64,000 bases of DNA. Origin: Spirochaetota bacterium (GTDB lineage: Bacteria > Spirochaetota > Spirochaetia > Treponematales > UBA12059). Where the stretch lies: assembly GCA_022703505.1 (NCBI GenBank), contig JAKLDN010000005.1, forward strand, positions 200,717 to 264,716, written 5' to 3'. The notes beneath the pieces were generated by a model. The model was not told the origin of the DNA, ran no database searches, and saw only the letters and a program-made list of their open reading frames with translations. The translations under genes were made by a program, and so were the position numbers. This document shows, in pieces, positions 1,197 to 34,206 of this stretch; positions within the stretch are counted from its first letter, which is position 1; every line of letters starts with the position of its first letter.

Positions 1197-1280
1197 CCGG
1201 GGGCCGGCGGATCGGTCCCGGGGCGCGGCGCCGTCCCGGGATCGGGATAGAACGACAGAACGAATCGCAGGAGGAACGTT

Positions 1281-7532: not shown

Positions 7533-7994
7533 ATGACGACGAGCCAGATCATCCGGTCCCTGGAACCGACCCAGGACAACCTCCTGGCGATCCTGCACCG
7601 GGTACAGGACGCGAATCCCGCGAACTTCCTGGACCAGCCGGAACTCCGCGAGGTCGCCGATTATCTGGAGCTTCCGTACAGCTTCGTCTACGGAGTGGCG
7701 ACATTCTACTCGATGTTTTCCGTGAAGCCCCGGGGCCGCCATGTCGTCCGGGTCTGCGCCTCGCCGCCCTGCCACCTCATGGGCGGGCGGACCATCCGGG
7801 ACGAACTCCGCGAGTATCTGGGGGTGGAGTTCGGCGACACGACCGAGGACGGCCTGTTCACCCTGGAGCTCTCCAGCTGTCTGGGAACCTGCGGCATCGC
7901 CCCGGCCATGATGATCGACGGGGAGATCTTCGGGAACCTCGACGGGGTCCGGCTCCGGGAGATCCTCGATCGGAAGCGAAGGGAGGAGCCATGA
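7533..7994 (+). CDS. hydC: [FeFe]-hydrogenase gamma subunit (NuoE-like, [2Fe-2S])
   Basis: GVATFYSMF, VCASPPCH and SSCLGTC give four Cys ligands; aggagg SD. Confidence 0.88.
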   Translation: MTTSQIIRSLEPTQDNLLAILHRVQDANPANFLDQPELREVADYLELPYSFVYGVATFYSMFSVKPRGRHVVRVCASPPCHLMGGRTIRDELREYLGVEFGDTTEDGLFTLELSSCLGTCGIAPAMMIDGEIFGNLDGVRLREILDRKRREEP

Positions 7995-9658
7995 TCCCCC
8001 TGATGCACGTCATCCTCGACGTGGGCGCGGAGGCGGAGCAGGCCGGCGCCCGGAAATTCCGGGAGGTCCTGGAAGCCAAGCTGCGGAAGGAGTTCCTGTC
8101 GGAGGACGTCCGGATCGTGGAATCCGCCAACCTCGGCGTCAGCGGCCAGGGCGTCTGCATGCTCGTCTACCCCGACGAAGTGTACTACGGGAACCTGAAA
8201 CTCTCCGACGCGGACCGCATCGTCGACCAGCACTTCATCAACGGCAAGCCCGTGGAGGAGCTCTTCCTGGACTCGCCGGAGATGCGGCGCCTCATGGCAT
8301 GGCGCCGGCGGGAAGGGATCATCAAGAAGGGCCGAGGCCGTGTGGTCCTGGACAACGTGGGGGCCGTCGACCCGGAAAACCTGGCCGAGTACAAGTCCCG
8401 GGACGGCTTCCGGGCCCTGGCGGAAGCGGTGCGGGGCGGCACCCCGGAGGGGGTCCTGGACACCGTCAAGCGATCCGGCCTGCGGGGCCGGGGAGGCGCG
8501 GGCTTCCCGACGGGGATGAAGTGGGAGGCCGTCCGGGAGGCCCCGGGGGACAGGAAGTACGTGATCTGCAACGCCGACGAGGGCGAGCCGGGCACCTTCA
8601 AGGATCGGATCATCCTGGAGGGGGATCCCTTCCGCGTGTTGGAGGCCATGGCCCTGGCGGGCTACGCGACCGGAGCGGAGGAGGGCTACGTCTATGTCCG
8701 GGGAGAGTACCGGACCTCGATCGACCGCCTGGAGAACGCCATCCGGAAGTCCCGGGAAGCGGGGTACCTGGGCCGGAATATCCTGGGCTCGCCCTTCTCC
8801 TTCGAGGTGAGGGTCAAGGAGGGCGCGGGGGCCTACATCTGCGGGGAGGAGACCGCCCTGATCGAGTCCCTGGAGGGGAAGCGCGGCACCCCCCGTCTGA
8901 AGCCTCCCTACCCGGTGACGGAGGGACTCTGGGGACGGCCCACGGTGGTGAACAACGTGGAGACCCTGGCCAACGTCCCGCCGATCCTGCGCAACGGGGC
9001 CGACTGGTTCCGGAAGTTCGGCACGGAGCGCTCCCCGGGCACCAAGATCTACCTGATCATCGGGCATGTCGTCAGCCCGGGCCTGGTCGAGGTGGAGACC
9101 ACGACGAGCCTGCGGGAGCTCATCTACGGCTACGGCGGGGGTATCCGGGGACGCAGGCGGCTCAAGGCGGTCCAGGTGGGCGGCTCCTCCGGGGGGATCT
9201 TCGACCCGAGCGTCCTGGACGAGGCCATGCACTTCGACGCCCTCAAGGAAAAGGGCGGCATCCTGGGTTCCGGGTCCATGCTGGTCATGGACGAGACCAC
9301 CTGCATCGTGGACATGGTCCACGGGATCCTCAATTTCTTCCTCCACGAGTCCTGCGGGGCCTGCTTCCCCTGCCGGATCGGCAACGAGCGGCTGGTCCGG
9401 ACGGTGAACGGTTTCCGCAGCGGATCCGCCCGCCCGTCCGACATCGACCTCCTGGAGGAGATCGCGTCGGCCATGAAGGTCGCCTCGTACTGCGCCCTGG
9501 GGCAGTCGCCGTTCCTGCCCCTGAGCACCGCGATCCGCTACTTCCGGGAGGAATTCGAGGAGCACGTGAACGGGAAATGCAGGGCGGGGGTGTGCCGCTT
9601 CAAGGTCCTGAAGGAACGACAGGAGGCCCGGCGATGGACGGTCGTGATGTCGCGGTGA
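7991..9658 (+). CDS. hydB: [FeFe]-hydrogenase beta subunit (NuoF-like NADH/FMN-binding)
   Basis: SGLRGRGGAGFPTG, NADEGEPGTFKDR, GAGAYICGEETALIESLEG and ESCGACFPCRIG...C. Start MIPLMH at 7991. Confidence 0.9.
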   Translation: MIPLMHVILDVGAEAEQAGARKFREVLEAKLRKEFLSEDVRIVESANLGVSGQGVCMLVYPDEVYYGNLKLSDADRIVDQHFINGKPVEELFLDSPEMRRLMAWRRREGIIKKGRGRVVLDNVGAVDPENLAEYKSRDGFRALAEAVRGGTPEGVLDTVKRSGLRGRGGAGFPTGMKWEAVREAPGDRKYVICNADEGEPGTFKDRIILEGDPFRVLEAMALAGYATGAEEGYVYVRGEYRTSIDRLENAIRKSREAGYLGRNILGSPFSFEVRVKEGAGAYICGEETALIESLEGKRGTPRLKPPYPVTEGLWGRPTVVNNVETLANVPPILRNGADWFRKFGTERSPGTKIYLIIGHVVSPGLVEVETTTSLRELIYGYGGGIRGRRRLKAVQVGGSSGGIFDPSVLDEAMHFDALKEKGGILGSGSMLVMDETTCIVDMVHGILNFFLHESCGACFPCRIGNERLVRTVNGFRSGSARPSDIDLLEEIASAMKVASYCALGQSPFLPLSTAIRYFREEFEEHVNGKCRAGVCRFKVLKERQEARRWTVVMSR

Positions 9659-11409
9659 CCATAAACGGGGTCCGGGTTCGAGTCCCCGAGGGGACGATGA
9701 TCCTGCAGGCTGCCCGGACGGCCGGATACGAGATCCCCAGCCTGTGCTTCCATCCCGACCTCCGGCCCAACGGCACCTGCGGGATGTGCGTGGTGGAGAT
9801 CGAGGGCGTGGGAGTGCGTCGGTCCTGCTGCACCCCCGCCGGGGATGGCATGGACATCCGGACCAACACGCCCCGGGTGATGGACACCCGCCGGACCCTG
9901 ATCGAACTGATCCTGGCGGACCACGCGGCGGACTGCCCCATCTGCGACAAGCACGGCAAGTGCGACCTGCAGAGGATCGGCCAGGACCTCGGCATCCGGG
10001 AGATTCGCATGGCCCCCAAGGAGGTCTTCTCCCGGCGCAGCGACGGCGGCATCGTCCTTCGGGACCCCAACAAGTGCATCCTGTGCAATCGCTGCGTCAC
10101 CGTCTGCACGGAAGTGCAGGGGGTGGCCAACCTCACCCGGATCGGCCGCGGCTATACTTCTAAGATCGGAACCGCCTTCGACCTTCCGATCGAGGACAGC
10201 GTCTGCGTGAACTGCGGCCAGTGCGTGGTCTACTGCCCCGTCGGGGCCCTGTCCTCCCGGGACGACACGAGGGAGGTCCGCCGCAGCCTCGCCGATCCGG
10301 GGAAGCACGTGGTCGTACAGGAGGCGCCCGCCATCCGGGCGGCCCTGGGCGAGGAGTTCGGCCTATCCCCGGGAGCGGTGGTTTCCGGAAAGATGCACGC
10401 CGCCCTGCGGAAACTTGGGTTCGACCGGGTTTTCGACACCAACTTCGCCGCGGACGTCTGCATCCTGGAGGAGGGGACCGAGGTCGTCCGGCGCATCCTG
10501 TCGGGGAGCCCGGACCTGCCGGTCATCACATCCTGCTCCCCGGGCTGGATCAAGTTCATGGAGACCTTCTATCCCGGGCTCCGGAGCCTAGTCTCCTCCG
10601 CGAAGAGTCCCCAGCAGATGTTCGGAGCCCTGGCCAAGACCTACTACCCCCGGGAGGCGGGGCTCAAACCCGAGGACATCGTCTCGGTCTCGGTCATGCC
10701 CTGCACGGCCAAGAAGTTCGAGGCGGACCGCCCGGAGATGCGGTCCAGCGGCTTCAAGGACGTGGACTACGTGCTGACCACCCGGGAACTCGCCCGGATG
10801 ATCAAGGAGTCCGGCCTGCGATTCGAGGATCTCGCCGACGCCCCCGCGGACGAGCTGATGGGCTCGTACACCGGCGCGGCCACCATCTTCGGGGCCACCG
10901 GAGGGGTCATGGAGGCGGCCCTGCGCACGGCCTACCACCTGGTTACGGGGCGGGAGCTGGAAAACGTGGACATCCTGCCCGTGCGGGGCATGGAGGGCGT
11001 CAAGGAAGCCGTCGTGCCCCTCCCTCTGCCGGACGGCGGGACCCTGGACTTGAAGGTCGCGGTGGCCCACGGCCTCGGGAACGCCCGCAGGATCCTGGAC
11101 GTGATCCGGAACCAGCTTGAGACGACGGGAAGGAGCGAGTATCACTTCGTGGAGATCATGGCCTGCCCCGGGGGCTGCGTCGGAGGAGGGGGACAGCCCT
11201 TCGGCTCGACCCTGGGCACCCGGGCGGAGCGGGGAAGCGGCCTGTACGAGGAGGACCGGACCCTTCCGAGCCGCAAGTCCCACGAGAATCCCGCGGTCCA
11301 GCGGCTGTACGAGACCTTCCTCGGCTCACCCTGCTCGGAGAAGGCCCACCACCTGCTCCACACCGCCTACGTCGAACGGGAGAGGGTGCACGGCAGGGCG
11401 GCCGGCTGA
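9634..11409 (+). CDS. hydA: [FeFe]-hydrogenase catalytic alpha subunit
   Basis: H-cluster motifs TSCSPGW, MPCTAKKFE and EIMACPGGCVGGGGQP. N-terminal [2Fe-2S], His-ligated [4Fe-4S] and 2x[4Fe-4S] motifs. aggagg SD before ATG 9634. Confidence 0.93.
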   Translation: MDGRDVAVTINGVRVRVPEGTMILQAARTAGYEIPSLCFHPDLRPNGTCGMCVVEIEGVGVRRSCCTPAGDGMDIRTNTPRVMDTRRTLIELILADHAADCPICDKHGKCDLQRIGQDLGIREIRMAPKEVFSRRSDGGIVLRDPNKCILCNRCVTVCTEVQGVANLTRIGRGYTSKIGTAFDLPIEDSVCVNCGQCVVYCPVGALSSRDDTREVRRSLADPGKHVVVQEAPAIRAALGEEFGLSPGAVVSGKMHAALRKLGFDRVFDTNFAADVCILEEGTEVVRRILSGSPDLPVITSCSPGWIKFMETFYPGLRSLVSSAKSPQQMFGALAKTYYPREAGLKPEDIVSVSVMPCTAKKFEADRPEMRSSGFKDVDYVLTTRELARMIKESGLRFEDLADAPADELMGSYTGAATIFGATGGVMEAALRTAYHLVTGRELENVDILPVRGMEGVKEAVVPLPLPDGGTLDLKVAVAHGLGNARRILDVIRNQLETTGRSEYHFVEIMACPGGCVGGGGQPFGSTLGTRAERGSGLYEEDRTLPSRKSHENPAVQRLYETFLGSPCSEKAHHLLHTAYVERERVHGRAAG

Positions 11410-11472
11410 GACGGCGGAATTCGGGACAGGTCCGCCGGGGCCCGGCCGTCCCGTGCCGAACCCGTGCGCTAT

Positions 11473-11626
11473 GAGTTTGTCGGGCTTGCCCACCAAAATA
11501 AAGGGGGTGTCCAATAAGTAACCGACTTATTGGACACCCCGACCTTGCAAACTCCAAAGGAGCCGGATAATCGTGGATTTTTAGCGCCTATCGGCGCTAA
11601 AAATCCACAAGTCCACAGGCTCCTAG
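11473..11626. mobile_element. Putative decayed MITE-like insertion with two internal 16-bp hairpins
   Basis: AT-richer island with degenerate terminal repeats gagtttgtcgggcttg / caagtccacaggctc, flanked by ctat and ctag. Perfect inverted repeats at 11504-11540 and 11573-11608. Confidence 0.5.
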
Positions 11627-12384
11627 GCCATGTAGACCCCGCCGTTGATGTCCAGGGTGGCGCCCGTGATGAACCCGTCGTATTCGCCGGCCAGGAAGGC
11701 CACGGCCCGGGCGACGTCCTCGCAGGTGCCGGCGCGGCGGAGCGGGATGTCCCGGATGGTCGCCTGCTTGGATTCCTCCGTGGTGTGGATCCGATGGAAG
11801 GCGGATCCCAGGATGAGCCCGGGGGCCACCGCGTTGGCCCGGATGCCGTCCGGGGCCAGTTCTGTGGAAAGCGAGCGCGTGAAGGACAGGATCGCTCCCT
11901 TGGCGGTGGAATAGACCAGGGAGCCGCCGTGGCCCCCCTTCCGGCCGGCCAGGGAGGACAGGTTGACGATGGACGCGGCCCCGGGCTTCCGGAGCAGGGG
12001 GATCAGGGCCCGGGTCACGAACACCAGGGAGTCCAGGTTCACAGCCATCACGGAGCGGTAGAATGCCAAGTCCGCTTCCTCGAGCCTCCGGCGGCCCACG
12101 AGATCCCCGGTATTGTTCACCAGGACGTCCAGGCTGCCCCAGCGCCGCTCCACGAACCCGGCCAGGGACCGGGCACCGTCCTCGGCGGAGAGGTCGGCCT
12201 GGACGGCCTCGGCTGCGCCGCCGTTCGCCCGGATCGTGTCCACCAGGGCCCGGGCGGAGTCCCCGCTCTTGAAGTAGTGGATCAGGACCTCCGCACCCCG
12301 GTCCGCCAGTTCCCGCACGATAGCGTTCCCGATCCCCGATCCGCCGCCGGTCACCAAGGCCTTTTTCCCCCGGAGTCGATCCAT
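11623..12384 (-). CDS. Short-chain dehydrogenase/reductase (SDR)
   Basis: TGGGSGIG, LVNNTG, YSTAKG (YxxxK) and NAVAPG motifs; aaggagg SD. Confidence 0.9.
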   Translation of the reverse strand: MDRLRGKKALVTGGGSGIGNAIVRELADRGAEVLIHYFKSGDSARALVDTIRANGGAAEAVQADLSAEDGARSLAGFVERRWGSLDVLVNNTGDLVGRRRLEEADLAFYRSVMAVNLDSLVFVTRALIPLLRKPGAASIVNLSSLAGRKGGHGGSLVYSTAKGAILSFTRSLSTELAPDGIRANAVAPGLILGSAFHRIHTTEESKQATIRDIPLRRAGTCEDVARAVAFLAGEYDGFITGATLDINGGVYMA

Positions 12385-23819: not shown

Positions 23820-24725
23820 ATGGACGAGATCCTGGCCTGGGGCCTGGAGGTCGTACGGTCCGTGCAGACCGCCGCCTCCCCGGGTCTCACGGCGTCGTTC
23901 CGTTTCCTGAGCCTGCTCGGGACGGAGTACTTCTTCCTCTTCGCCCTGCCCGTGGTCTACTGGTGCGTGGATCACCGGAAGGGAATCCGCCTGGGGCTCC
24001 TGGTCCTGGTTTCCGCGGTCCTGAATTCCTGGCTCAAGGTGGTCTTCCGGCAGCCCCGGCCCTACGACCTGGACCCCTCGGTCGGAATGGCCCGGGAGAC
24101 GAGCTACGGCCTGCCCTCGGGCCACTCCCAGAGCTCGGCCACCTTCTGGGGAGTCGTCGCCCCCTGGATCCGCGCACCCTGGGGCCTCGTGCTGGCCCTG
24201 GCCCTGCCCTTCCTGATCGGACTTTCCCGGGTCTACCTGGGGGTGCACTTCCCCACGGACGTCTTCCTGGGCTGGGCCCTGGGAGCCCTCTTCGCGGCGT
24301 CCCACGCCGTCTGGGGGGATACCCTGGAGGCCCTGGTCGGGCGCCTACCGGGACGGCTGTGGATCGCGGCGGCCGCCGCGGCGGCCCTGGGCATGAACGC
24401 CCTGAACCCGGAGGAGACGGGACTGCCGGGCGCCCTTTTCGGCATGGTGGTCGGGGCCGTCCTGGCCGCATCCCGGGCCCGGTTCGACGCCGCCTCGGGC
24501 GGCCTCGCCCGGAAAGCCCTGCGGCTGGCCGCGGGGACGGCGGGAGCCGCGGTCCTCTATTTCGGCCTCAAGGCCGTCCTTCCGGGTGAAGGTTCCGCGA
24601 ACTACGCCCTCTTCCGCTTCCTGAGGTACGGAGTCCTGGGCGCCTGGGTCTCCCTGGGGGCTCCCTGGGTCTTCCTTCGCCTGGGTCTCGCGGAGGAACG
24701 GCCCGCGGCTACTCCGCGAACGTGA
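23820..24725 (+). CDS. PAP2-family membrane phosphatase
   Basis: KVVFRQPRP, PSGH and SRVYLGVHFPTDV catalytic motifs; ggagg SD. Confidence 0.88.
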   Translation: MDEILAWGLEVVRSVQTAASPGLTASFRFLSLLGTEYFFLFALPVVYWCVDHRKGIRLGLLVLVSAVLNSWLKVVFRQPRPYDLDPSVGMARETSYGLPSGHSQSSATFWGVVAPWIRAPWGLVLALALPFLIGLSRVYLGVHFPTDVFLGWALGALFAASHAVWGDTLEALVGRLPGRLWIAAAAAAALGMNALNPEETGLPGALFGMVVGAVLAASRARFDAASGGLARKALRLAAGTAGAAVLYFGLKAVLPGEGSANYALFRFLRYGVLGAWVSLGAPWVFLRLGLAEERPAATPRT

Positions 24726-25731
24726 AGGTCTTGTCCGTCAGGTTGAAGGCCTTGGAAGCCCCCGGAGACAGGTAGAGCCTCCGCTGGTCGTCCACGTAGA
24801 TCGCCTCGACCCCGGGCAGGGTCCGGACCAGGGCCAGGCCCCGTTCCCGCCCCAGGGCGAAGAGGGTCGTGGACAGTCCGTCCGCGTCGATGGAGGAGGG
24901 GGCGATGACCGTCACGGAGACGATCTCGGACTCCACGGGACTTCCCGTCCGGGTGTCCAGGATGTGGTGGTAACGCTTCCCGTCCTGCTCGAAGAACCTC
25001 TCGTACACCCCGCTGGTCACGACGGTGCCGGCGCCCATGCTGACGATCCCCAGGTAGCTGCCCCGGTCATTGAAGGGATTCTGCACCCCCACCCGCCAGA
25101 GGGACCCGTCGGCCTTCTTCCCGTACACCAGGACGTTTCCCCCCAGGTCCACGACCGCGGCCCGGACCCGGCGTTCCCCCAGGATGCGGGCGGTCTCGTC
25201 CGCGGCGTAGCCCTTGGCGATGGCCCCCAGGTCCAGGCGCATGCCGGACCGGGGCAGGAAGACCGTCGAGGCCCGTTCGTCCAGGACCACGGACTTCCAG
25301 CTCACCAGGGGCAGGGCCTCCCGGATCTCCCGGTCCGAGGGAACCCTCTGTCCGTCCAGTCCGATGTTCCAGAGCTTGACCACGGGCCCGATGGTCGGAT
25401 CGAAGGCCCCGTTCGAGAGCCGGGCGTATTCCAGGGCCTTCTTGACCACGAAGAGGGTGTCCGGGGACACCCGGACGGGGGAGCGGCCCGCGGCCTCGTT
25501 GACCGCGGCGATCTCGGTGCCCTCCCGGTTGGCGCTCATCCGGGCCTCGATCTCCCGGAGCCGGGCGAAAACCGCCTGGAGGACCGCCTCGGATCCCCCG
25601 TCCTGGAGGGAGACCGTACAGATGGTGCCCAGGACGTACTCGGATCCCCGCAGGGGCTCCCGGGTGCCCGTCCGGGCGCAGGCGGATAGGGAAAGGGAAA
25701 GGCACAGGAGTGCCGGAACGATACGGCGCAT
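24709..25731 (-). CDS. apbE: FAD:protein FMN transferase (ApbE) lipoprotein
   Basis: Lipobox LSAC; GAFDPTIGP, LDLGAIAKGY, VTSGVYER, HHILDTRTG and ADGLST motifs. Confidence 0.93.
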   Translation of the reverse strand: MRRIVPALLCLSLSLSACARTGTREPLRGSEYVLGTICTVSLQDGGSEAVLQAVFARLREIEARMSANREGTEIAAVNEAAGRSPVRVSPDTLFVVKKALEYARLSNGAFDPTIGPVVKLWNIGLDGQRVPSDREIREALPLVSWKSVVLDERASTVFLPRSGMRLDLGAIAKGYAADETARILGERRVRAAVVDLGGNVLVYGKKADGSLWRVGVQNPFNDRGSYLGIVSMGAGTVVTSGVYERFFEQDGKRYHHILDTRTGSPVESEIVSVTVIAPSSIDADGLSTTLFALGRERGLALVRTLPGVEAIYVDDQRRLYLSPGASKAFNLTDKTFTFAE

Positions 25732-25801
25732 GGAGGGAAGTATTCCGATAATCCCCGGTTTGTTCAATCCGCGGGCCGGGATACGGCGGGGTCGCGCCCT
25801 C

Positions 25802-26437
25802 TCACAGGAAGTACGGCCGTTCCGCGGCGACGGTGGTCGTCTCCCCGTGGCCCGGGAAGATCGTCGTGTCCGGGGGCAGGACCAGGATGCGCCGCCGGAT
25901 GCTGTCCAGGATGGCCTCCTCGGAGGAATCGAAGTTGTCCGTCCTTCCCAGGCCGCCCCGGAAGAGGGTGTCCCCGGCCAGGAGGGCGGAATCCCCCTCG
26001 ATATAGAAGCAGCAGCTGCCCGAGGTGTGTCCCGGGGTGTGCAGGACACGGATGGAGGTGCCCGGAAGGGAATCCCCGTCCGAAAGGAGTACGTCCGCCT
26101 CGGGCAGGGGAGACCAGAAGCGGGTGAAGAAGCTGCGGGCGCCGATATCCGTGAAGGTCCGCAGGTTGGTCTCCTCCCCGAGGGCCCCCAGGTAGCGGGC
26201 GTCCGCGGCGTGGATCGCCACGGGCACGGGCCCCAGGAGGGCGAGGAGGCCCGGAAGGCCGGCGGTATGGTCCAGATGTCCGTGGGTGAGGGCGACGCAG
26301 ACGGGCTTCCGGCCTTCCAAGGCGGCGGCGATCCGCTCGGGCTCCGCCCCGGGATCCACGACGATCGCCCGGCCCCCGCCCAGGTCCACGATATGGACGT
26401 TCACTCCGATAGGCCCTACACTCAAGGTCGTGATCAT
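25802..26437 (-). CDS. Metallo-beta-lactamase-fold hydrolase (glyoxalase II/YcbL-like)
   Basis: VDPG, THGHLDH, HTPGHT, GDTLF and PGHG motifs. Confidence 0.88.
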   Translation of the reverse strand: MITTLSVGPIGVNVHIVDLGGGRAIVVDPGAEPERIAAALEGRKPVCVALTHGHLDHTAGLPGLLALLGPVPVAIHAADARYLGALGEETNLRTFTDIGARSFFTRFWSPLPEADVLLSDGDSLPGTSIRVLHTPGHTSGSCCFYIEGDSALLAGDTLFRGGLGRTDNFDSSEEAILDSIRRRILVLPPDTTIFPGHGETTTVAAERPYFL

Positions 26438-26482
26438 AGGAATGGTATCCTATCGAAGCCCCGGGGGAGGGGCAATACCGGC

Positions 26483-27445
26483 ATGCTCCGGTCCCTGACC
26501 CTGGCGGTCCTGGCGGCCCTGCTCTTCTACGGGGTCCTGCCCGTCGCCGGGGCCTTCTCGGCCCGGGCCGGGTGGAGGACCTTCCGGAGACGGTTCCTGG
26601 CCTCCCTCGGTTACGCGCCCCTCGCCCTGGGGGACGGACTGCGGTCCCCGGAGGGAGAGGTCCTGGTACGGCGGCATTCCGGCTCCGCGGAGGTCCTCCA
26701 GGGGGAGGACCGGCTCTGGGTCCGCGGCGATGGAACGACCGCGGCGGTCCTACTCAAGGACGCCCGCATCTACCTGCTCCCGTCGGCACGGACCCCGGAG
26801 GGCCCCTATGATCTCGAAGCCGCGGACGAATCCCTGCAGCCCGCGGCCTGGAACCGGCTGTCCGGCCTCTCGGAGGGGGCCCGGGTCTACGCGGCCGGAA
26901 ACCTCAGGATCGAGGGCGGTCTTCCCGTCTTCTTCGGTTCCCCCGCCGAGCCCCTGTTGATCCTGATCCACGACGGCCGGGACGGGGATCTTGCCCGGCG
27001 CGCGGTCTGGGCGGGCCGGCACCGGAACGAGTACTGGAATCCCGTCACCCTGGTGTCCCTGACCGCGGGCTTCCTCTCCACGGGAGCGGCCCTCTACGAC
27101 CTGCTGCGGCCGCCCCTGCTGTCCCTACCCGCGGCCCTGGCGGCCGCCCTGACCGTCTCCCCGGTCCTCCCCTTCCTGCCGCCCGGGCTGGCCTTCCTTT
27201 CGATATACCGCAGACTCTGGGCCCGGGCGCGGTATCTCCGGGCGCATAGGGACCTGTTGAGATCCGGACTGGAGGACCCGGGCGGGAAGTACGGCCCCGG
27301 GGACGCGGAGGACCCGGAGGACGCGGCCGAGGCCCGCGTGCGCAGGGCCCGCAAGGATGAAGTCCTGGCCGGGCTGGCCTTCGCGGCCGCCCTGTCGTCG
27401 AATTTCCTGCTGGCCGTGCTCGCGGTCCGCGGGATCATTCGTTGA
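26483..27445 (+). CDS. Hypothetical membrane protein
   Basis: N-terminal TM, soluble middle region and C-terminal hydrophobic helices; GC3-consistent frame. Confidence 0.65.
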   Translation: MLRSLTLAVLAALLFYGVLPVAGAFSARAGWRTFRRRFLASLGYAPLALGDGLRSPEGEVLVRRHSGSAEVLQGEDRLWVRGDGTTAAVLLKDARIYLLPSARTPEGPYDLEAADESLQPAAWNRLSGLSEGARVYAAGNLRIEGGLPVFFGSPAEPLLILIHDGRDGDLARRAVWAGRHRNEYWNPVTLVSLTAGFLSTGAALYDLLRPPLLSLPAALAAALTVSPVLPFLPPGLAFLSIYRRLWARARYLRAHRDLLRSGLEDPGGKYGPGDAEDPEDAAEARVRRARKDEVLAGLAFAAALSSNFLLAVLAVRGIIR

Positions 27446-28157
27446 CGGGGTCGTCTCCCTCGGTTTCTTCCTCCCCTTCGGGGCGGTCCTCGGGCCTCCC
27501 GGGCCGGGACTCTTCCTTCCGCGGGCGGGCCCGGTTGACCGCGAGCTTCCGCCCCTTGAAGGACGTGCCGTCCGCGTCCTGGATGATGAGGTCCGCGGCT
27601 GCGGGATGCACGTTGACGAAAGTGTAGTTGTCGAAGGTCCGGATGGATCCGATGTCCGATTCCTCGAGGCCGGAGATCCCGGAGAGCACCCGCAGGACGT
27701 TCTGGGCGGTGAAGCGTTGGCGGCGGCCCATGCTGAAGAAGAGGGTCGTGCCCTCCCCGGAGTAGGAGCCTTTCCGGATCCGGAGGTCCGCCGATTCGAG
27801 GGCATTCTCGGTCCCGGCCTTGCCCGACGGAGCGCCGGGCTTACCGGGCGCCGATCCGGGAGATCGCTTTTCGCCCTTCGGCCCCACGACCCGGTTCGGT
27901 CCCGGGGCGGGGACGGGGACCGAGCGGCGGGGACCGGCGGAAGCGCCCAAGGCACGAAGGACCAGGGCCGCCGCGACGTAGGACCGGAGATGGAAGGGGA
28001 CCCGGGAGCGGAAGAGGGACCGGCAGGCGTTCAGGATGGCCGGGTCGCGGATGGAGCGCACGTCTTCCAGGATCTTCCCGATGAGAGCCTCGGCTTCCGC
28101 GGCGGGAAAGCCGTGTTGCGTATCTTCCGTTGACACATCAAACTCCTTGGTTTCCAT
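27435..28157 (-). CDS. Protein with a DbpA-type RNA-binding domain and no helicase core
   Basis: C-terminal TTLFFSMGRRQRF...DIGSIRTFDNYTFVNV...KGRKLAVNRA resembles the DbpA RRM-like domain. Alternative start 28184. Confidence 0.7.
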   Translation of the reverse strand: METKEFDVSTEDTQHGFPAAEAEALIGKILEDVRSIRDPAILNACRSLFRSRVPFHLRSYVAAALVLRALGASAGPRRSVPVPAPGPNRVVGPKGEKRSPGSAPGKPGAPSGKAGTENALESADLRIRKGSYSGEGTTLFFSMGRRQRFTAQNVLRVLSGISGLEESDIGSIRTFDNYTFVNVHPAAADLIIQDADGTSFKGRKLAVNRARPRKEESRPGRPEDRPEGEEETEGDDPVNE

Positions 28158-28339
28158 ATTGGCGGATACCGGGTGGAATCGCAAGGGCCCGGGCTCGCGG
28201 CGCCTCCGGAATCCGGCCCGATTAAATATATTATTATATCTATATTATCTATTCCATACTTGACCGAACGGCAAAATCCGGGCAAGATTATGGAGATTTC
28301 GGGGCGAACCAAATCATGAATCCTACGCAAGGAGCGTAT

Positions 28340-30340
28340 ATGGCGGACAAGAAGCGCATCCTGATCCTGGGCGGCGGCTACGCGGGCGTCTGGGCCGGGA
28401 AGATCCTAGAAAAGAAGTACCGGAAGCGGGACGACGTGGAAATCACCCTGGTGGACAAGAAGCCCTTCCACACCCTGATGACCGAGCTGCACGAGGTGGC
28501 CGGCTGGCGGGTGGAGCCCGAATCGGTCCAGGTCCCCTTCCGCAAGATCTTCGGCGCCCGGAAGATCGACATCCGGGTCGACACCATCACCGGGGTCGAC
28601 TTCCACGCCAAGGTCGCCAAGAGCTCCAGCGCGGAGTACCCCTTCGACTACATCGTCATCGGGGTCGGGGCGGAGCCCGAGTACTTCGGCATTCCCGGGG
28701 TCCAGGAGAACTCCTTCCCCCTGTGGTCCTTCGACGACGCGATACGCCTGCGGCACCACGTGGAGCACATGTTCGCCAAGGCCGCCTGCGAGACCGACCC
28801 CGCCAAGCGCCGGCGCATGCTCACTTTCGTGGTGGCCGGCGCGGGCTTCACGGGGATCGAGATGATCGGCGAGCTCCTGGAGTACCGCCAGGACATGTGC
28901 CGCAAGCACCACCTGGATCCCAAGGAGACCCGGGTCGTCAACATCGAAGCCCTGCCCTCCATTCTCCCGATCCTGGAGGAGCCCCTCCGGGTCCGGGCCG
29001 AGAACTACATGAAAAAGATGGGCTGCGAGATCTTCCTGAACTCCGCCATCACCGGCGCGGAGCCCGGAAAGGTCCTGCTGAAGGACGGCACCGTCGTGGA
29101 GACGGACACCTTCATCTGGACCTGCGGGGTCAAGGGCTCGTCCTTCACCTCCGTCCTGGACGTCCCCAAGGCCGAGCGGGGCCGGGGCCGCATGCAGGCC
29201 AACGACTTCATGCAGTCCACCGCCTACCCCTACGTCTACCTGGCCGGGGACTCCGCCTTCATCCTGGAGCCCAACGGCAAACCCATGCCCCAGATCGTGG
29301 AGGCCTCCCATTGCTCCGCGGAGACGGTGGCCCACAACATCATGGCGGACATCGACGGCGGGGAGCACCACAAGTTCAAGCCGAACTACCACGGCTTCAT
29401 GGTGTCCATCGGCGGGAAGTACGGCGTGGCCAACGCGGGCGGCATGAAGACCCGGGGCTTCATGGCCATGGCCATGAAGCACATGATCAACTGCTGGTAC
29501 CTGCTGAACATCGCGGGGATCAACCAGGTCTGGGAATACCTCAAGCACGAATTCCTGGACATGACCACGGGCCGCACCTTCATCGGCGGCTTCGTGTCCC
29601 ACCGGGTCCGGGCCTACTGGCCGCTCCTCCTGCGCATGTGGCTGGGCCTCATGTGGGTGATGGAGGGCGTGAACAAGATCGGCGAGGGCTGGCTCAAGTT
29701 CGATCTGGGCAGCAAGAGCGGGTGGATGTTCTCCTCCGGGGTGGTCCAGAAGGGCGTGGCCGACGCGGCCAGCGCGGCCAGCGGCGAGTGGGCCGCGGAC
29801 GCCACCGCCGCCGCCTCCGGGGCCGTGGAGGCCGCCGCCGAGGCGGTGACCGCCGCCTCCGGCGAATGGGCCGCGGACGCCACGGCGGCCGCCTCGGGCG
29901 CCGCGGAAGCCGTAGCCGAGGGAGCCGGGAAGGCCCTGGGCAAGGTCTGGGACCTGGCCAAGCCGATCTTCGACTTCAACGGCCCGGTCTCCACCTGGTT
30001 CCGGACCACCTTCATGGACGGGATGTTCGCGCACCTGCACTTCGCCGCCTTCCAGGGCATGATCGTCGTCATGGAGATCCTGATCGGACTCGCCCTCTTC
30101 GGCGGCTGCTTCACCTGGCTGGCCGCGGTGGCCAGCATCGGGATGTGCGTGGTCTTCACCCTCTCGGGCATGTTCGCCTGGGACCAGCTCTGGTTCGTCT
30201 TCGCCGCCATCCTCTGCATGGGCGGGGTCGGACGCGCCTTCGGCATGGACTACTGGGTGGTCCCCTTCTTCAAGCGCTGGTGGAACGGCACCAAGTTCGC
30301 CCGCAAGAACTACTTCTACGCGGACGACCCGACCAAGTGA
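28340..30340 (+). CDS. Type II NADH dehydrogenase-like flavoprotein fused to a DoxX-like membrane domain
   Basis: Two Rossmann motifs (ILGGGYAG, VAGAGFTGIE), IWTCGV and YLAGD; C-terminal LRMWLGLMW...MEILIGLALFGG...AFGMDYW membrane domain. Confidence 0.85.
   Translation: MADKKRILILGGGYAGVWAGKILEKKYRKRDDVEITLVDKKPFHTLMTELHEVAGWRVEPESVQVPFRKIFGARKIDIRVDTITGVDFHAKVAKSSSAEYPFDYIVIGVGAEPEYFGIPGVQENSFPLWSFDDAIRLRHHVEHMFAKAACETDPAKRRRMLTFVVAGAGFTGIEMIGELLEYRQDMCRKHHLDPKETRVVNIEALPSILPILEEPLRVRAENYMKKMGCEIFLNSAITGAEPGKVLLKDGTVVETDTFIWTCGVKGSSFTSVLDVPKAERGRGRMQANDFMQSTAYPYVYLAGDSAFILEPNGKPMPQIVEASHCSAETVAHNIMADIDGGEHHKFKPNYHGFMVSIGGKYGVANAGGMKTRGFMAMAMKHMINCWYLLNIAGINQVWEYLKHEFLDMTTGRTFIGGFVSHRVRAYWPLLLRMWLGLMWVMEGVNKIGEGWLKFDLGSKSGWMFSSGVVQKGVADAASAASGEWAADATAAASGAVEAAAEAVTAASGEWAADATAAASGAAEAVAEGAGKALGKVWDLAKPIFDFNGPVSTWFRTTFMDGMFAHLHFAAFQGMIVVMEILIGLALFGGCFTWLAAVASIGMCVVFTLSGMFAWDQLWFVFAAILCMGGVGRAFGMDYWVVPFFKRWWNGTKFARKNYFYADDPTK
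29783..29938 (+). repeat. Intragenic 78-bp (26-aa) tandem duplication
   Basis: Units starting at 29783 (ggcgagtgggccgcggacgcc) and 29861 (ggcgaatgggccgcggacgcc) encode GEWAADATAAASGA twice. Confidence 0.85.
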
Positions 30341-30354
30341 TTCGAATGATCTCC

Positions 30355-30491
30355 GGAAGGACGGCGCACCCGGGGCGGTGTGCCGTCCTTCCCCTCCGAA
30401 GACGTGCCGCCCTGCCTTCAGAAACACGATCCGGAGAACTCGACGAAGCCCGAAGGGCTTCGTCGCCTTCGGGTCGCGAAGCGACCCGAAG
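30355..30491 (+). repeat. Cluster of three hairpins between the NDH-2 fusion and polyprenyl synthase genes
   Basis: 16-bp stem at 30355-30392 (one G-U); cgacgaagccc-GAA-gggcttcgtcg at 30441-30465; cttcgggtcgc-GAA-gcgacccgaag at 30467-30491. Confidence 0.8.
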
Positions 30492-30493
30492 CG

Positions 30494-31462
30494 ATGACTG
30501 ACTTCTGGAACGATTTCCCCACCGTCAAGAAGCGCCTCGAGGCCGTCTCCGCCGAGATGGCCTCGACTGTCCGCTCCGCGGGTTTCCCCCTGGCCGCGGA
30601 ACTGGCCCGGGTAGTGGAGTCGGACGGCAAGATGCTCCGCCCCGGCTTCCTCCTCCTGGCCGCCGAGTTCGGCAAGCCCGGCCGGGCGGCCGACCTGGCG
30701 CCCCTGGCCGCCTCCATCGAACTGCTGCACATAGCCACCCTGATCCACGACGACATCCTGGACGAGGCGCCCCTCCGCAGGGGGGAGCCCGCCTTCCACG
30801 TGCGGAACGGGGTCAAGGAGGCGGTGCTGACCGGGGACTGGCTCTTCGCCCAGTGTTTCCGCCTGGCCTCGGCCTTCTCCACCCCCGAGAACGCCCGGCG
30901 CTTCGCCCTGGTCATCGGCATCGTCTGCTCCTCGGAGATCCGCCAGGACCTGGACAAGTTCCGGTACTCCAAGAGTGTCCGCGAGTACCTGCGCAAGATC
31001 GCCGGAAAGACCGCGGCCCTCTTCTCCCTGGCCTTCACCCTGGGGGCCGTGGAGGGGGGCTGCGACCCCGGGACGGTAGGCCGTCTGCGGAGAACCGGGT
31101 ACGACATCGGCATGGCCTTCCAGGTGATCGACGACATCCTGGACTACGAGAGCACCGAGGGGATCTTCCGCAAGCCCGTGGGCAAGGACATCTCCGAGGG
31201 CCTGTGCACCCTGCCCCTCATCCACGCCCTGGAGCGGGACGACGGCCGCCTGGCCGCCCTGCTGGAGAATCCCCCCTTCGACCGCCCCGCGGTCGACCGC
31301 ATCGTCCGGCTCATCCGGGAGTCGGGAGCCCTGGAGGCCTCCCGGGGGATCGCGCGGAGGTACACGGAGCGGGCCCTCCGGGAGATCGAGGGCCTGCCCG
31401 ACAAGCCCGTACGGCTGACCCTGAGGCGCGTGACCGAGCGCCTCCTGGTGCGGGCCTACTGA
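30494..31462 (+). CDS. Long-chain polyprenyl diphosphate synthase (HepT/IspB-like)
   Basis: GKMLRP, first and second aspartate-rich motifs (HDDILD..LRRG, FQVIDDILD), GKTA and GKDISEG. Confidence 0.9.
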   Translation: MTDFWNDFPTVKKRLEAVSAEMASTVRSAGFPLAAELARVVESDGKMLRPGFLLLAAEFGKPGRAADLAPLAASIELLHIATLIHDDILDEAPLRRGEPAFHVRNGVKEAVLTGDWLFAQCFRLASAFSTPENARRFALVIGIVCSSEIRQDLDKFRYSKSVREYLRKIAGKTAALFSLAFTLGAVEGGCDPGTVGRLRRTGYDIGMAFQVIDDILDYESTEGIFRKPVGKDISEGLCTLPLIHALERDDGRLAALLENPPFDRPAVDRIVRLIRESGALEASRGIARRYTERALREIEGLPDKPVRLTLRRVTERLLVRAY

Positions 31463-31485
31463 CGGACGCGGGAACGGAGCCGTCC

Positions 31486-32079
31486 ATGAAGAACGAACTG
31501 GCCACCTACATCCTGGTCGCCCTGGGCCTTTCCATGGACGCCTTCGCGGTGTCCGTCTCCAGCGGGATCTGCATCCCCAGGCTCGAGTTCCGGCACGGGC
31601 TCCGTGCAGCCGCCTTCTTCGGCCTTTTCCAGTTCCTGATGCCCCTGGCCGGGTACTTCGTCGGCGCCGCCTTCCGGGGCCCGATCCGGGGCTACGACCA
31701 CTGGATCGCCTTCGGCCTGTTGGCCTTCGTGGGGGCCAAGATGATCAAGGAGGGCTTCGAGGTCCGCACGGACGCGGCCTGCGACGAGGAGGAGCTCCGC
31801 AAACGGAACATCCTGGACCTGGGAACCCTGGTCCTGCTGTCCGTGGCCACCAGCATCGACGCCTTGGCGGTGGGGCTTTCCTACAGCCTCCTGGACCAGC
31901 CCATCCTCCCCCCCGCCTCCATCATCGGCGTCCTGACCTTCCTGGTATGCCTGGCGGGCTGCGAGTTCGGCAAGCGCCTGGGCGCCGTCTTCGAGCGCTG
32001 GGCCGAGGTGGCCGGGGGAGCCGTCCTCGTGGGCATCGGGATCAAGATCCTGGCGGAGCACCTCTCGAACGGGCTGTAG
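31486..32079 (+). CDS. mntP: Manganese efflux pump MntP family
   Basis: LGLSMDAFAVS, FGLFQFLMP and ATSIDALAVG motifs. Confidence 0.88.
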   Translation: MKNELATYILVALGLSMDAFAVSVSSGICIPRLEFRHGLRAAAFFGLFQFLMPLAGYFVGAAFRGPIRGYDHWIAFGLLAFVGAKMIKEGFEVRTDAACDEEELRKRNILDLGTLVLLSVATSIDALAVGLSYSLLDQPILPPASIIGVLTFLVCLAGCEFGKRLGAVFERWAEVAGGAVLVGIGIKILAEHLSNGL

Positions 32080-32130
32080 CCTCCTCGCCGCTCCACAAGG
32101 AAGCCCCGCGGAGGGTATACTGTCGATCCG

Positions 32131-32655
32131 ATGAAGAATCGAATCCCCGCGGCGATCCTCCTGTCCCTCCTGGTCTCGGCGGCCGCCCAGGTTCCGGCAC
32201 CGCGGCCGGACGCGCCCGCCCTCCCGGTGCCTCCCGCAGGGACTGCGGACCGGCGGGCCCGCGTGCTCCTTCCCGACGATCCCGCCCCCCTCCTGGACCT
32301 GTCCCTGGAGGAGGCCTGGAACCGGCTGGGGCCGCCCCGGAGTATCCTGGCGGTCCGGGGGAACGAGCCCTGGCAGGACGACGTCGCCTTCGAGTACGGG
32401 GACGGGCTTTCGGTGTACTGGTACCGGGACCGCCTGTGGCAGGTGCGTCTCTCCGCGGGGTACGCGGGTTCCTGTTTCGGGTTCTTCCTGGGCGATCCCG
32501 CGGACAAGGCCCTGTCCCTCCTGGGCACCCCGGACCGTGGGGAGTCCGGCATCCTGGAGTGGCGGCTGCCCTGGCGGGGTTACCCGGCCAAGCTTCGCGT
32601 GGTGACCCGGGACGGCGCGATCGCGGAGGTGTATGTCTACCGCTCGGACTTCTAG
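32131..32655 (+). CDS. Hypothetical exported protein
   Basis: Signal peptide, Pro-rich linker and small beta-rich domain; TATACT 9 nt upstream of the ATG. Confidence 0.7.
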   Translation: MKNRIPAAILLSLLVSAAAQVPAPRPDAPALPVPPAGTADRRARVLLPDDPAPLLDLSLEEAWNRLGPPRSILAVRGNEPWQDDVAFEYGDGLSVYWYRDRLWQVRLSAGYAGSCFGFFLGDPADKALSLLGTPDRGESGILEWRLPWRGYPAKLRVVTRDGAIAEVYVYRSDF

Positions 32656-32658
32656 GAG

Positions 32659-34170
32659 GTGCCCGTGGCCCAGCTCTGCCTCTGCCTGACCGGAAGCACC
32701 CTGGCGGAAAACCTCCGGGCCCTGGACATGTACCGGGGCCGGATCGACCTGGCCGAACTCCGGGCGGACTGCCTGGATCCCAACGAGGTCTTCCATATCC
32801 GTTCGTTCCCGGAGCTGGCGGGAATCCCGACCATCCTCTCGGTCCGGCGCCGCGCGGACGGAGGCTACTTCGACGACGGGGAAGGCGCCCGGCTCGTGGT
32901 CTTCGCCAAGGGCCTGGCCTTCGCCAGCCGGGACCGGAGACTGAACTTCGCCTACGTGGACATCGAGCAGGACTTCCGGATCCCGGCCCTGGAGGAGGCG
33001 GCGCGCACCTTCGGTACCCGGATCATCCGGTCCCGGTACTGCCCCGCCGGACTGCCGGAGGACCTGGACGAGATTTGGACGGACCTCTCACGGGATCCCT
33101 ACGAGATCCCCAAGCTGGCGGCCGTCCTGCGGGGCATCGGGGAGACCCGCCGGCTCTTCGAGTTCGCGGACCGTCTGCCCGACACGGAGCACATCGTCTC
33201 CGGGATGGGGGAGTACGGATTCTGCTTCCGCATCCTGACCTCCCGCACGGGAAGCCTGATCAACTACGCCAGTCCCTCCCTGGCGGGCCTTCCCTCCGCC
33301 GCCCCCGGACAGGCCACCGCGGAGGAGTACGAGAACGTCTACCGCTGGCGGAAGATCCGGAAGGACTACTCGGTCTTCGGAATCCTGGGAGGCCCCTCGG
33401 TCCTGGGCTCCCTCTCCCCCTCCCTGCACAACGCGGGATACGCGGAACTGGGGATGCCCGCGGTCTACCTACCCTTCCCCTCGGATTCCCTGGAGCAGTT
33501 CCTGGCCCTGGCGGAGGAACTGGGGGTTCGTGGTTTCTCCGTCACCGTTCCCTTCAAGGAAAAAATCCTGCCCTACCTTACGGAACGCGCTCCGGAGGTC
33601 TCCGCCATCGGTGCCTGCAACACCGTGGTCCGGACCCCCTCGGGCTGGTACGGCACGAACACCGACGCCGCGGGCTTCGAGCGCTCCGTCCTGGACTTCC
33701 TCAAGCGCCCCGACTTGAAGGGCGTCCGGACCGCCATCATCGGGGCCGGAGGCTCCGCCCGGGCGGTGGCCTACGCCCTGCAGAAGCTGGGGGCCTCGGC
33801 CTGCGTGGTCAACCGGGGCATGAACAAGGCCAAGCAGCTGGCCGAGCGCCACGGCTTCGAGTGGGCGGGGATGAACGAACGGGCGGTGGAGCTCCTGGGC
33901 CGATACAACGATCTCATCGTACAGACCACCTCGGTGGGCATGGAGGGGGGAGTTCCGGGGGATCCCCTGGAATGGTACGAGTTCACGGGCTCGGAAGCCC
34001 TGGTGGACATCATCTACAACCCCAAGGAGACCCCCGTGATGCGCCGGGCCCGGGAGGCGGGCTGCGCCGTGGCCAACGGCCTGGGGATGCTACGCGCCCA
34101 GGGGGAGGTCCAGTTCGAACTGTTCACCGGCAAAAAGTACCCCGGCCTGCCCTTCGGGGACGTAGTCTAG
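32659..34170 (+). CDS. aroE: Bifunctional type I 3-dehydroquinate dehydratase / shikimate dehydrogenase (AroD-AroE fusion)
   Basis: N-terminal ELRAD, IPKLA, MGEYG and APGQ; C-terminal SLSP, TVPFK, NTV, NTD, GAGGSARA and QG. Confidence 0.85.
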   Translation: MPVAQLCLCLTGSTLAENLRALDMYRGRIDLAELRADCLDPNEVFHIRSFPELAGIPTILSVRRRADGGYFDDGEGARLVVFAKGLAFASRDRRLNFAYVDIEQDFRIPALEEAARTFGTRIIRSRYCPAGLPEDLDEIWTDLSRDPYEIPKLAAVLRGIGETRRLFEFADRLPDTEHIVSGMGEYGFCFRILTSRTGSLINYASPSLAGLPSAAPGQATAEEYENVYRWRKIRKDYSVFGILGGPSVLGSLSPSLHNAGYAELGMPAVYLPFPSDSLEQFLALAEELGVRGFSVTVPFKEKILPYLTERAPEVSAIGACNTVVRTPSGWYGTNTDAAGFERSVLDFLKRPDLKGVRTAIIGAGGSARAVAYALQKLGASACVVNRGMNKAKQLAERHGFEWAGMNERAVELLGRYNDLIVQTTSVGMEGGVPGDPLEWYEFTGSEALVDIIYNPKETPVMRRAREAGCAVANGLGMLRAQGEVQFELFTGKKYPGLPFGDVV

Positions 34171-34206
34171 CAGGGTGCTGACACGCTCGAAGCTTGTCAG
34201 CACCCC
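34167..34206 (+). repeat. CTAG-anchored palindromic element, copy B
   Basis: ctagca-gggtgctgaca-cgctcgaagct-tgtcagcaccc; perfect 11-bp stem; same CTCGAAG core as the other copies; its TAG is the aroDE stop. Confidence 0.75.

Follow-up and report, generated by a model that had tools for sequence, protein, structure and literature searches.

A conserved ndh2/doxX-polyprenyl synthase gene pair as the probable core of a Listeria-type flavin-based electron transfer system in a fermentative spirochaete

Background

Flavin-based extracellular electron transfer (FLEET) in Listeria monocytogenes, Lactiplantibacillus and Enterococcus is reportedly encoded by a locus, said to have been described by Light and colleagues in 2018, that consists of ndh2/ndh3, dmkA, dmkB, fmnB, pplA, eetA, eetB and fmnA. 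The subject of this report is a related set of genes in the genome of a spirochaete (Spirochaetota bacterium, order Treponematales, GenBank assembly GCA_022703505.1). At its centre are a gene for a type II NADH dehydrogenase (NDH-2) fused to a DoxX-like membrane domain (ndh2/doxX) and, directly downstream, a gene for a polyprenyl diphosphate synthase (pps). Both lie in a stretch of 64,000 nucleotides, here called the window (contig JAKLDN010000005.1, abbreviated C10, positions 200717-264716). The genome measures 3.66 Mb in 14 contigs, has a G+C content of ~68% and is 98.5% complete. The ndh2/doxX-pps pair is probably the conserved core of a FLEET system of the Listeria type in a fermentative spirochaete.

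Comparison with described electron transfer systems

EetB (PF07456) is the energy-coupling factor S-type (ECF-S) subunit for export of flavin adenine dinucleotide (FAD) that is needed for flavinylation of PplA, and its gene is co-localised with eetA in 3,328 genomes (PMC9973259). The Ndh2 of Lactiplantibacillus pentosus, a protein of 637 aa with Pyr_redox_2 and DoxD domains, is encoded alongside PplA and ApbE (Meheust et al. 2021, Supplementary file 1). In the same survey (eLife 10:e66878) an extracellular electron transfer (EET) system was defined as an Ndh (NDH-2 of the K03885 type) with a transmembrane helix encoded in a flavinylation gene cluster (Supplementary file 2), such a cluster being the genes within five of apbE or of a gene for a protein binding flavin mononucleotide (FMN). 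The window falls within this definition, as apbE is found four genes upstream of ndh2 and membrane helices are modelled in Ndh2.

One of the clusters that the survey labels EET (Supplementary file 1) is from another spirochaete, Sediminispirochaeta bajacaliforniensis. It encodes a 206-aa protein with four transmembrane segments, EetB, a 93-aa protein and a lipoprotein ApbE, and on the strand opposite ApbE an Ndh of 695 aa (Pyr_redox_2, VKG_Carbox and DoxD, three transmembrane segments) followed by polyprenyl_synt. A spirochaete FLEET system had thus already been catalogued, and the novelty implied by a preliminary description of the window, which was made from its sequence, has to be given up. 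As in S. bajacaliforniensis, the Ndh-DoxD gene of the window stands directly before pps, a lipoprotein ApbE is encoded nearby, and a protein of ~207 aa accompanies EetB in the genome. Unlike in that species, apbE is four genes away, and eetA and eetB lie 228 kb from ndh2 on the same contig. The window lineage, with its ~68% GC and matches to named Treponemataceae and Rectinemataceae, belongs to a different family.

The window organism shares with the FLEET system an NDH-2 with a DoxD/DoxX-like domain, DmkB, a lipoprotein ApbE (FmnB), the NusG_II and PF07456 proteins and, as putative counterparts of DmkA and PplA, a MenA-like UbiA and a two-domain FMN-binding secreted protein (PplA-like). The host is, by contrast, diderm, and its genes do not form a single locus but are spread over two contigs, in three or more places. 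Its PplA-like protein is no lipoprotein, carries the motif SGVS and scores no more than 24 bits on FMN_bind, and its Ndh2 loop has grown into an array of four motifs.

The window Ndh2 is 44-45% identical over residues 1-662 to the Ndh2 of two Clostridia, Clostridiales bacterium oral taxon 876 F0540 (locus L100) and a Clostridiaceae metagenome-assembled genome (MAG; L098). In L100 a lipoprotein with two FMN_bind domains is encoded on the opposite strand, followed by ndh2-NusG_II-PF07456-polyprenyl synthase, and its Ndh2 scores 23.6 bits on DoxX with weaker matches to DoxD and HTTM. The domain order of both Clostridial proteins is that of the window Ndh2, and pps is found downstream in both; they differ in that eetA and eetB stand between ndh2 and pps, the loop has 54-56 residues with no or one motif, and the host is monoderm. 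In a quick tree the Clostridial Ndh2 grouped with low-GC spirochaete sequences, and because this tree is unrooted the direction of transfer cannot be read from it. The kinship with the Listeria EET locus that had been proposed for the window is borne out by this FLEET-type architecture of Ndh2, by its identity to proteins encoded in Clostridial pplA/eetA/eetB/dmkB clusters, and by the occurrence of every other FLEET family beside ndh2 in some spirochaete lineage.

The Ndh2/DoxX fusion and its conserved partner

Pfam scans of Ndh2/DoxX identified Pyr_redox_2 (110 bits), and residues 4-397 matched solved NDH-2 structures (best E = 1.6e-71; Bacillus subtilis YjlD and Caldalkalibacillus thermarum 4NWZ, to 1e-69). 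An AlphaFold2 model, built with 45 homologues and having a mean pLDDT (predicted local distance difference test) of 83.9, agreed with the NDH-2 structures 4NWZ and 5NA1 (target-normalised template modelling score 0.95, root-mean-square deviation 1.6-1.9 A). Both Rossmann GxGxxG motifs are present, GGGYAG at residue 11 and GAGFTG at residue 167, and residues 1 to ~400 are thus an NDH-2 domain in both motifs and fold. The canonical NDH-2 enzymes (C. thermarum 4NWZ, Staphylococcus aureus 5NA1, B. subtilis YjlD) share this fold and both dinucleotide motifs at 28-33% identity over ~400 residues, but they are monotopic proteins anchored by amphipathic helices and have neither a DoxX-like integral membrane domain nor an outward loop.

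The C-terminal ~240-270 residues (~426-650) were modelled as four helices (426-448, 568-588, 592-608 and 614-650), with hydrophobic segments at residues 563-636, and a DoxX match (PF07681) is precomputed for many close homologues. A fold search with the whole model returned NDH-2 structures only and was silent on the membrane domain. Distant homologues (L016-L022) carry in the NDH-2 domain an insertion of ~30 residues that contains cysteines (C-S-x5-GIHGMA-x-C; columns ~314-343 of alignment A1), which is not found in the window's clade in that alignment.

Retrieval of relatives of the window Ndh2 yielded 3735 proteins, and those with names were from Spirochaetota. Of 301 Spirochaetota genomes covered by a phylum-level search, 11 encode the full-length fusion. 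None of the ten genomes sampled from a large sister family (f2, taken as Treponema-like) has it, and Leptospira-like genomes contained plain NDH-2 enzymes of ~430 aa.

The product of pps matched PF00348 at 190 bits, and its best NCBIfam model was HepT, at 213.6 bits under a HepT cut-off of 456. DDILD motifs, corresponding to the first (FARM) and second (SARM) aspartate-rich motifs, are located at residues 86 and 213, and in the FARM context, HIATLIHDDILD, position -5 is A and position -4 is T; small residues at these two sites ahead of the FARM mark long-chain enzymes. These features place the protein in the long-chain class, as a predicted HepT/DmkB-like trans-polyprenyl diphosphate synthase.

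The ndh2 loci compared here were 10 from the genomes of the phylum search and 80 named from GTDB species genomes, located with tblastn and custom hidden Markov model searches; the named loci include those of Breznakiella homolactica, Gracilinema caldarium, Oceanispirochaeta, Marispirochaeta, many termite-gut Treponema MAGs and the two Clostridia. A pps gene was found within 1 kb 3' of ndh2 on the same strand in 75 of the 76 loci with enough flank, while Ndh2 identity fell to as low as 42% and GC content ranged from 33% to 68%. Thus ndh2/doxX and pps form a fixed pair, and their adjacency is far beyond chance. In ~20 loci, through much of a Treponematales-like clade, an mntP homologue follows downstream on the same strand at a distance of 1.0-1.2 kb. 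A promoter and terminator scan, otherwise uninformative, revealed no terminator-like site between ndh2, pps and mntP, and from this arrangement mntP is probably co-transcribed with the pair.

Homologues of other FLEET components in the genome and their linkage in relatives

The preliminary description had considered the window a compact variant in which DmkA, PplA and EetAB were missing. Homologues of all of these are present elsewhere in the genome (Table 1), and the search that it had suggested for UbiA/MenA and FMN_bind proteins found one UbiA and a two-domain FMN-binding protein, both on contig C9. The UbiA-family gene is the sole copy in the genome, and its best NCBIfam models are MenA. 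The PplA-like protein has a signal peptide, scores 24 bits on FMN_bind against a cut-off of 22 and contains two TDAISGVS repeats; one of its domains matches PDB 2KZX, which bears TDAISGAT. Its orthologues in L018-L020 are lipoproteins encoded beside ubiA and ndh2. EetA and EetB are encoded near the start of C10, and the gene that follows eetB codes for a membrane protein without a Pfam match, perhaps the transporter partner otherwise missing for EetB. Homologues of this protein also follow eetB in other loci (L093:4563-5231, L096:1004-1486 and L055:13133-13726). FmnA (ECF-T) was not identified, and no search was aimed at it.

The same families recur beside ndh2 in other lineages. In 13-14 loci a UbiA gene, confirmed by Pfam, stands directly upstream of ndh2 or adjoins pps, with 13 loci beside ndh2 as compared to 0.16 expected for an unlinked single-copy gene. 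A two-domain FMN-binding lipoprotein is found beside ndh2 in 7-8 loci (7 versus 0.16 expected), EetA in five (0.22 expected) and EetB in four (0.22 expected); EetA and/or EetB are near ndh2 in L076, L093, L096 and L101. The gene order in L093 is eetA-eetB-x-ubiA-ABC transporter-apbE / ndh2-pps. The ndh2 gene of that locus (9760-11859) is split over two frames (9760-11511 and 11533-11859), possibly by an assembly error or a frameshift.

The distribution of these genes across genomes follows that of the fusion. UbiA was found in 10 of the 11 fusion-bearing genomes and the two-domain FMN-binding protein in 9 of the 11, each as compared to only one of the ten fusion-free f2 genomes, so that the Treponema-like family differs from the window organism in all ten genomes by the absence of the fusion and in nine of ten by the absence of either of the other two. 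The window holds the conserved core and the flavin transferase of a dispersed and apparently complete FLEET-type set.

ApbE

The apbE product matched PF02424 at 313.8 bits over 265 of 266 profile positions, and its N-terminus, MRRIVPALLCLSLSLSAC, has the form of a lipoprotein signal with the lipobox LSLSAC. It is predicted on these grounds to be a periplasmic lipoprotein FAD:protein FMN transferase of the FmnB type. In Treponema pallidum the ApbE-family protein Ftp (TP0796) is reportedly a periplasmic lipoprotein, and that spirochaete has Rnf and targets for flavinylation in the periplasm (PMC4436053); its flavinylated lipoprotein TP0171 is among the proteins with ApbE motifs (PMC12052999). 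The window organism is similar in that its ApbE is likewise a periplasmic lipoprotein by prediction and its genome encodes a full Rnf operon.

A single tblastn match indicated that there is only one ApbE in the genome. The gene was near ndh2 in five lineages among 86 loci, as compared to 0.24 expected for an unlinked single-copy gene; the chance that such a gene lies 7 kb or less from ndh2 is ~0.4% per genome. It is beside ndh2 in L015, L093 and L101, and 6.5 kb away in L055. These independent adjacencies, together with the published Sediminispirochaeta cluster, support a functional link between apbE and ndh2. The synteny check that had been suggested for the window therefore had a divided outcome, with ndh2-pps conserved almost throughout and the linkage of apbE weaker, being absent from two genomes of the window's own family (L013 and L014). 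The caution that had been voiced over apbE proved justified on this account and because the sole copy must also serve Rnf and Nqr-like proteins.

An Nqr-like operon on contig C1 (L007) has genes for NqrB/RnfD-like and NqrF-like proteins, the latter with Fer2, FAD_binding_6 and NAD_binding_1 domains, for an Rnf-Nqr membrane protein and for an FMN_bind protein with the motif DGVSGAS. No NqrA gene was found upstream in this operon, which is a possible second quinone reductase or a partial NQR/RNF-like system.

Flavinylation-like motifs in the Ndh2 loop

Helices 1 and 2 of the DoxX-like domain are separated by an Ala-rich loop of ~120 residues, of which residues 476-535 are the sole long low-confidence segment of the AlphaFold2 model. 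With a cytoplasmic NDH-2 domain and one helix preceding it, the loop would face outward. It contains four tandem 7-mers, DAASAAS (475-481), DATAAAS (487-493 and 513-519) and EAVTAAS (501-507), which resemble the ApbE motif D-x-x-[S/T]-G-A-[S/T] with A in place of G throughout and E in place of D once. The relaxed motif [DE]-x-x-[ST]-[GSA]-A-[ST] was found in 48 of 56 homologous loops, as compared to 1.6 expected from composition-preserving shuffles, in loops that are otherwise unalignable and of low complexity. There are up to seven copies per loop in some termite-gut relatives. Fully canonical forms are seen in 8 of the 56 loops, among them DAVTGAT, DAASGAT, DGGSGAS and the DATSSAS of the Clostridial L100.

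In a tested substrate, the fumarate reductase of Klebsiella pneumoniae, G-to-A and A-to-V changes keep ~50% flavinylation (PMC12052999), and for this reason both the variant in the Ndh2 loop and the SGVS variant of the PplA-like protein are plausible ApbE substrates. Flavinylation of Ndh2 is not described in the literature searched. It is known that ferric reduction by Enterococcus faecalis requires EetB and Ndh3, that PplA is dispensable, and that the direct electron donor is not known (PMC9864754). We tentatively suggest, with somewhat less than even confidence and from motif conservation, that Ndh2 proteins of the FLEET type may themselves be ApbE substrates, with one or more FMN groups bound covalently to a disordered outward loop that offers four candidate sites here. 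If so, the whole path of the electrons, from NADH in the cytoplasm through FAD and a bound quinone to the flavins at the outer face, would lie within a single polypeptide, which would give a direct reason for the recurring adjacency of apbE and ndh2 and could explain the PplA-independent ferric reduction in E. faecalis. The motifs are a testable candidate for the step between the reduced quinone and the external acceptor.

Quinone metabolism

Family searches of the genome, at its 98.5% completeness, found no MenD above cut-off, no MqnA, no MenG/UbiE above cut-off and no cytochrome bd. Fumarate reductase was rejected as a quinol sink, since the sole Succ_DH_flav_C match is NadB (L-aspartate oxidase), encoded next to nadC. 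The cell thus has genes for quinone reduction, tail synthesis and prenyl transfer, without a headgroup pathway, a methylase or a standard quinol oxidase. Because these enzymes are absent, an NADH sink in the style of FLEET that uses a scavenged headgroup fits better than ordinary respiration. Lactiplantibacillus plantarum, a quinone-auxotrophic user of FLEET, requires exogenous DHNA (1,4-dihydroxy-2-naphthoic acid; PMC9888254), and the window organism is similar in that it cannot make the naphthoquinone headgroup either. A demethylmenaquinone-like product would parallel Listeria. Like L. plantarum, the organism would depend on precursors supplied by the community for its extra NADH sink, a dependence that matters, in guts and anaerobic digesters, for cross-feeding and redox balance.

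A NitT/TauT-type ABC transporter (NMT1-like binding protein, ATPase and permease) is encoded divergently from the sole ubiA. Transporters of this type recur beside ndh2, ubiA or apbE in other loci (L093:6172-8580, L055:6533-8906 and L083:16175-21950), and the published EET cluster of the Clostridial UBA701 also has one (Meheust et al. 2021). The transporter is put forward as a candidate for import of the quinone headgroup.

Proposed mechanism and alternative explanations

In the proposed mechanism cytoplasmic NADH would reduce the FAD of the NDH-2 domain, and a dedicated prenylated quinone, probably resembling demethylmenaquinone and located in or close to the DoxX/DoxD-like membrane domain, would take up the electrons. 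The adjacent pps would build the quinone tail, and the sole UbiA/MenA-like prenyltransferase (on C9) would join the tail to an imported headgroup. The quinol would then be re-oxidised by covalent FMN on the outward side of the membrane, candidate FMN carriers being the secreted two-domain FMN-binding protein (also on C9) and, possibly, the Ndh2 loop. The lipoprotein ApbE would install the flavins with FAD provided by an exporter of the EetA/EetB type, and the electrons would end on a periplasmic or external acceptor. The outcome would be a second NADH sink for a fermenter, beside its bifurcating hydrogenase and Rnf. The identities and homology of the genes, their conserved linkage and the absence of ordinary quinone pathways were observed directly; the quinone type, flavinylation, the direction of electron flow, the acceptor and electron export itself are predictions of this model. 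On this model electron export by flavins and quinones of the Listeria type would not be confined to monoderm Firmicutes, and would be widespread in free-living, digester and termite-gut Spirochaetota as a system built round the fixed ndh2/doxX-pps pair with mobile accessory genes.

Several points weigh against this assignment. The DoxX score of the window Ndh2 itself is 22.8 bits, just below the Pfam cut-off of 23.6, and its kinship to the Ndh2 of Listeria, Enterococcus and L. plantarum rests on a published domain table and the Clostridial loci. UbiA scored 108 bits on the MenA models, far below their equivalog cut-offs of at least 264, which leaves its headgroup unassigned. The PplA-like protein has a signal for signal peptidase I rather than a lipobox, and G-V-S in place of G-A-T. 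The p-values for linkage are overstated because related loci were treated as independent, with the enrichment still large. ApbE, as the sole copy, also serves RnfG/RnfD and the Nqr-like B and C proteins, and with such substrates the position of apbE near ndh2 says little by itself; the gene lies 2.6 kb upstream of ndh2 with three genes of mixed orientation in between, and in L013 and L014 (72-74% identity), the two genomes of the same family that were sampled, it is not in the neighbourhood of ndh2. The Nqr-like operon with its NqrF could be another quinone user. Finally, nothing identified carries electrons across the outer membrane of this diderm host, and for that reason "extracytoplasmic" is a safer term than "extracellular".

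The same genes might instead belong to an ordinary respiratory module, in which Ndh2 is the entry to a short menaquinone chain, pps has a housekeeping function, and ApbE serves Rnf and Nqr-like proteins and is nearby by chance. The N-terminal 400 residues are indeed those of a standard NDH-2, Leptospira-like spirochaetes have the plain enzyme, and the Rnf and NqrB/C/E/F-like operons need an ApbE that is encoded by a single gene, which is not near ndh2 in same-family genomes. This explanation nevertheless appears improbable, as the MenD, MqnA, MenG/UbiE, cytochrome bd and fumarate/succinate flavoprotein that such a chain would use were not found by the family searches, a membrane domain with a fixed pps partner is a signature of FLEET, and genes for PplA-like, EetA/B and ApbE proteins recur directly beside ndh2 in other lineages. 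That last recurrence, and the flavinylation-like motifs kept in the outward loop, would also be left unexplained if the fusion were a device against envelope redox stress or for quinone detoxification, in which the NDH-2 and DoxX-like domains keep an exogenous or membrane quinone reduced against oxidants, as proposed for other DoxX-family proteins, and do not export electrons for energy or redox balance. Membership in DoxX is borderline and the family is functionally diverse, a gene for a Mn2+ exporter is the third gene in the ~20 loci with mntP, and the host is a strict fermenter with a bifurcating hydrogenase, all of which suit such a device; manganese handling is tied to oxidative stress. 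The homologues in Firmicutes clusters, however, are of the genetically proven EET dehydrogenase type, and a redox-stress function is considered highly improbable.

A further question concerns the boundaries of the system. Only ndh2-pps(-mntP) may be a functional unit, with apbE 2.6 kb off by coincidence, though perhaps in the same pathway, and this has a real chance of being correct, if a little short of even. The three intervening genes appear unrelated, and the position of apbE is common only to the near-identical contigs of the same species (L024 and L082, 97% identity). Against this, a location this close to ndh2 arises by chance in few genomes, yet it was found in five separate lineages and in the published Sediminispirochaeta cluster. 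Coincidence of apbE is compatible with a FLEET core and alters only its boundaries.

Gene order and other features of the window

The gene set of the window was fixed by Pfam scans and by independent gene calls on metagenome contigs that bear an identical Ndh2 protein, which gave the same genes. ApbE, the NDH-2/DoxX fusion, the polyprenyl synthase and the hydrogenase, all of which had been recognised from the sequence, are real genes at the positions in Table 1. The high GC content has produced many shadow open reading frames (ORFs) in the window, and the large ORFs at 25214-27445 (+), 31947-34181 (+) and 31456-32796 (-) were rejected as such, having no family match and overlapping real genes in 68% GC sequence.

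Table 1. Positions of FLEET-related genes and other features. Coordinates are those of the window unless a contig (C1, C9, C10 or C12) is named.
Feature	Location	Strand	Description
[FeFe] hydrogenase operon	~7533-11409	+	HydC/HydB/HydA-type, NADH- and ferredoxin-linked
arsR, then P-type ATPase	5' of PAP2 gene		
PAP2 phosphatase	23820-24725	+	
apbE	24709-25731	-	340 aa, PF02424
Metallo-beta-lactamase (MBL)-fold hydrolase	25802-26437	-	
320-aa protein	26483-27445	+	No family match
DbpA-domain protein	27435-28184	-	249 aa
ndh2/doxX	28340-30340	+	666 aa, Pyr_redox_2 + DoxX-like
Four tandem 7-mers in Ndh2 loop	29762-29896	+	Residues 475-519
pps	30494-31462	+	322 aa, PF00348
mntP	31486-32079	+	PF02659, Mn2+ efflux family
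174-aa protein, aroD/aroE fusion, era, tetR, MMPL transporter	After mntP, in this order		174-aa protein: no family match
EetA	C10:~870-1254		NusG_II (PF07009), 75 bits; outside window
EetB	C10:1220-1768		PF07456, 110 bits; outside window
Membrane protein	C10:1761-2384		207 aa, no Pfam match, 3' of eetB
NitT/TauT-type ABC transporter	C9:200344-203262		Divergent from ubiA
UbiA-family gene	C9:~203087-203941		Sole copy, best NCBIfam models MenA
PplA-like protein	C9:218438-219232		265 aa, secreted, two FMN-binding domains
Rnf operon	C12:33107-38233		Full
Nqr-like operon	C1:611855-615935		L007
Decahaem cytochrome c	C1:603278-604294		338 aa

The hydrogenase operon confirms a fermentative, hydrogen-producing lifestyle. 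None of the three genes that separate apbE from ndh2 is supported as part of the module, all of them being common only to the contigs of the same species. The sole recognisable part of the DbpA-domain protein is a C-terminal DbpA RNA-binding domain, without a helicase core.

The decahaem cytochrome c was considered as a conserved partner and rejected, as it was found in only 2 of the 11 fusion-bearing genomes. Its ORF contains ten CXXCH motifs and has a homologue in one other sampled genome only (G288); its neighbours in the region C1:602332-606449 are a gene for a rhodanese-like secreted protein and, divergently oriented, genes of the ResB/CcsA type for cytochrome c biogenesis.

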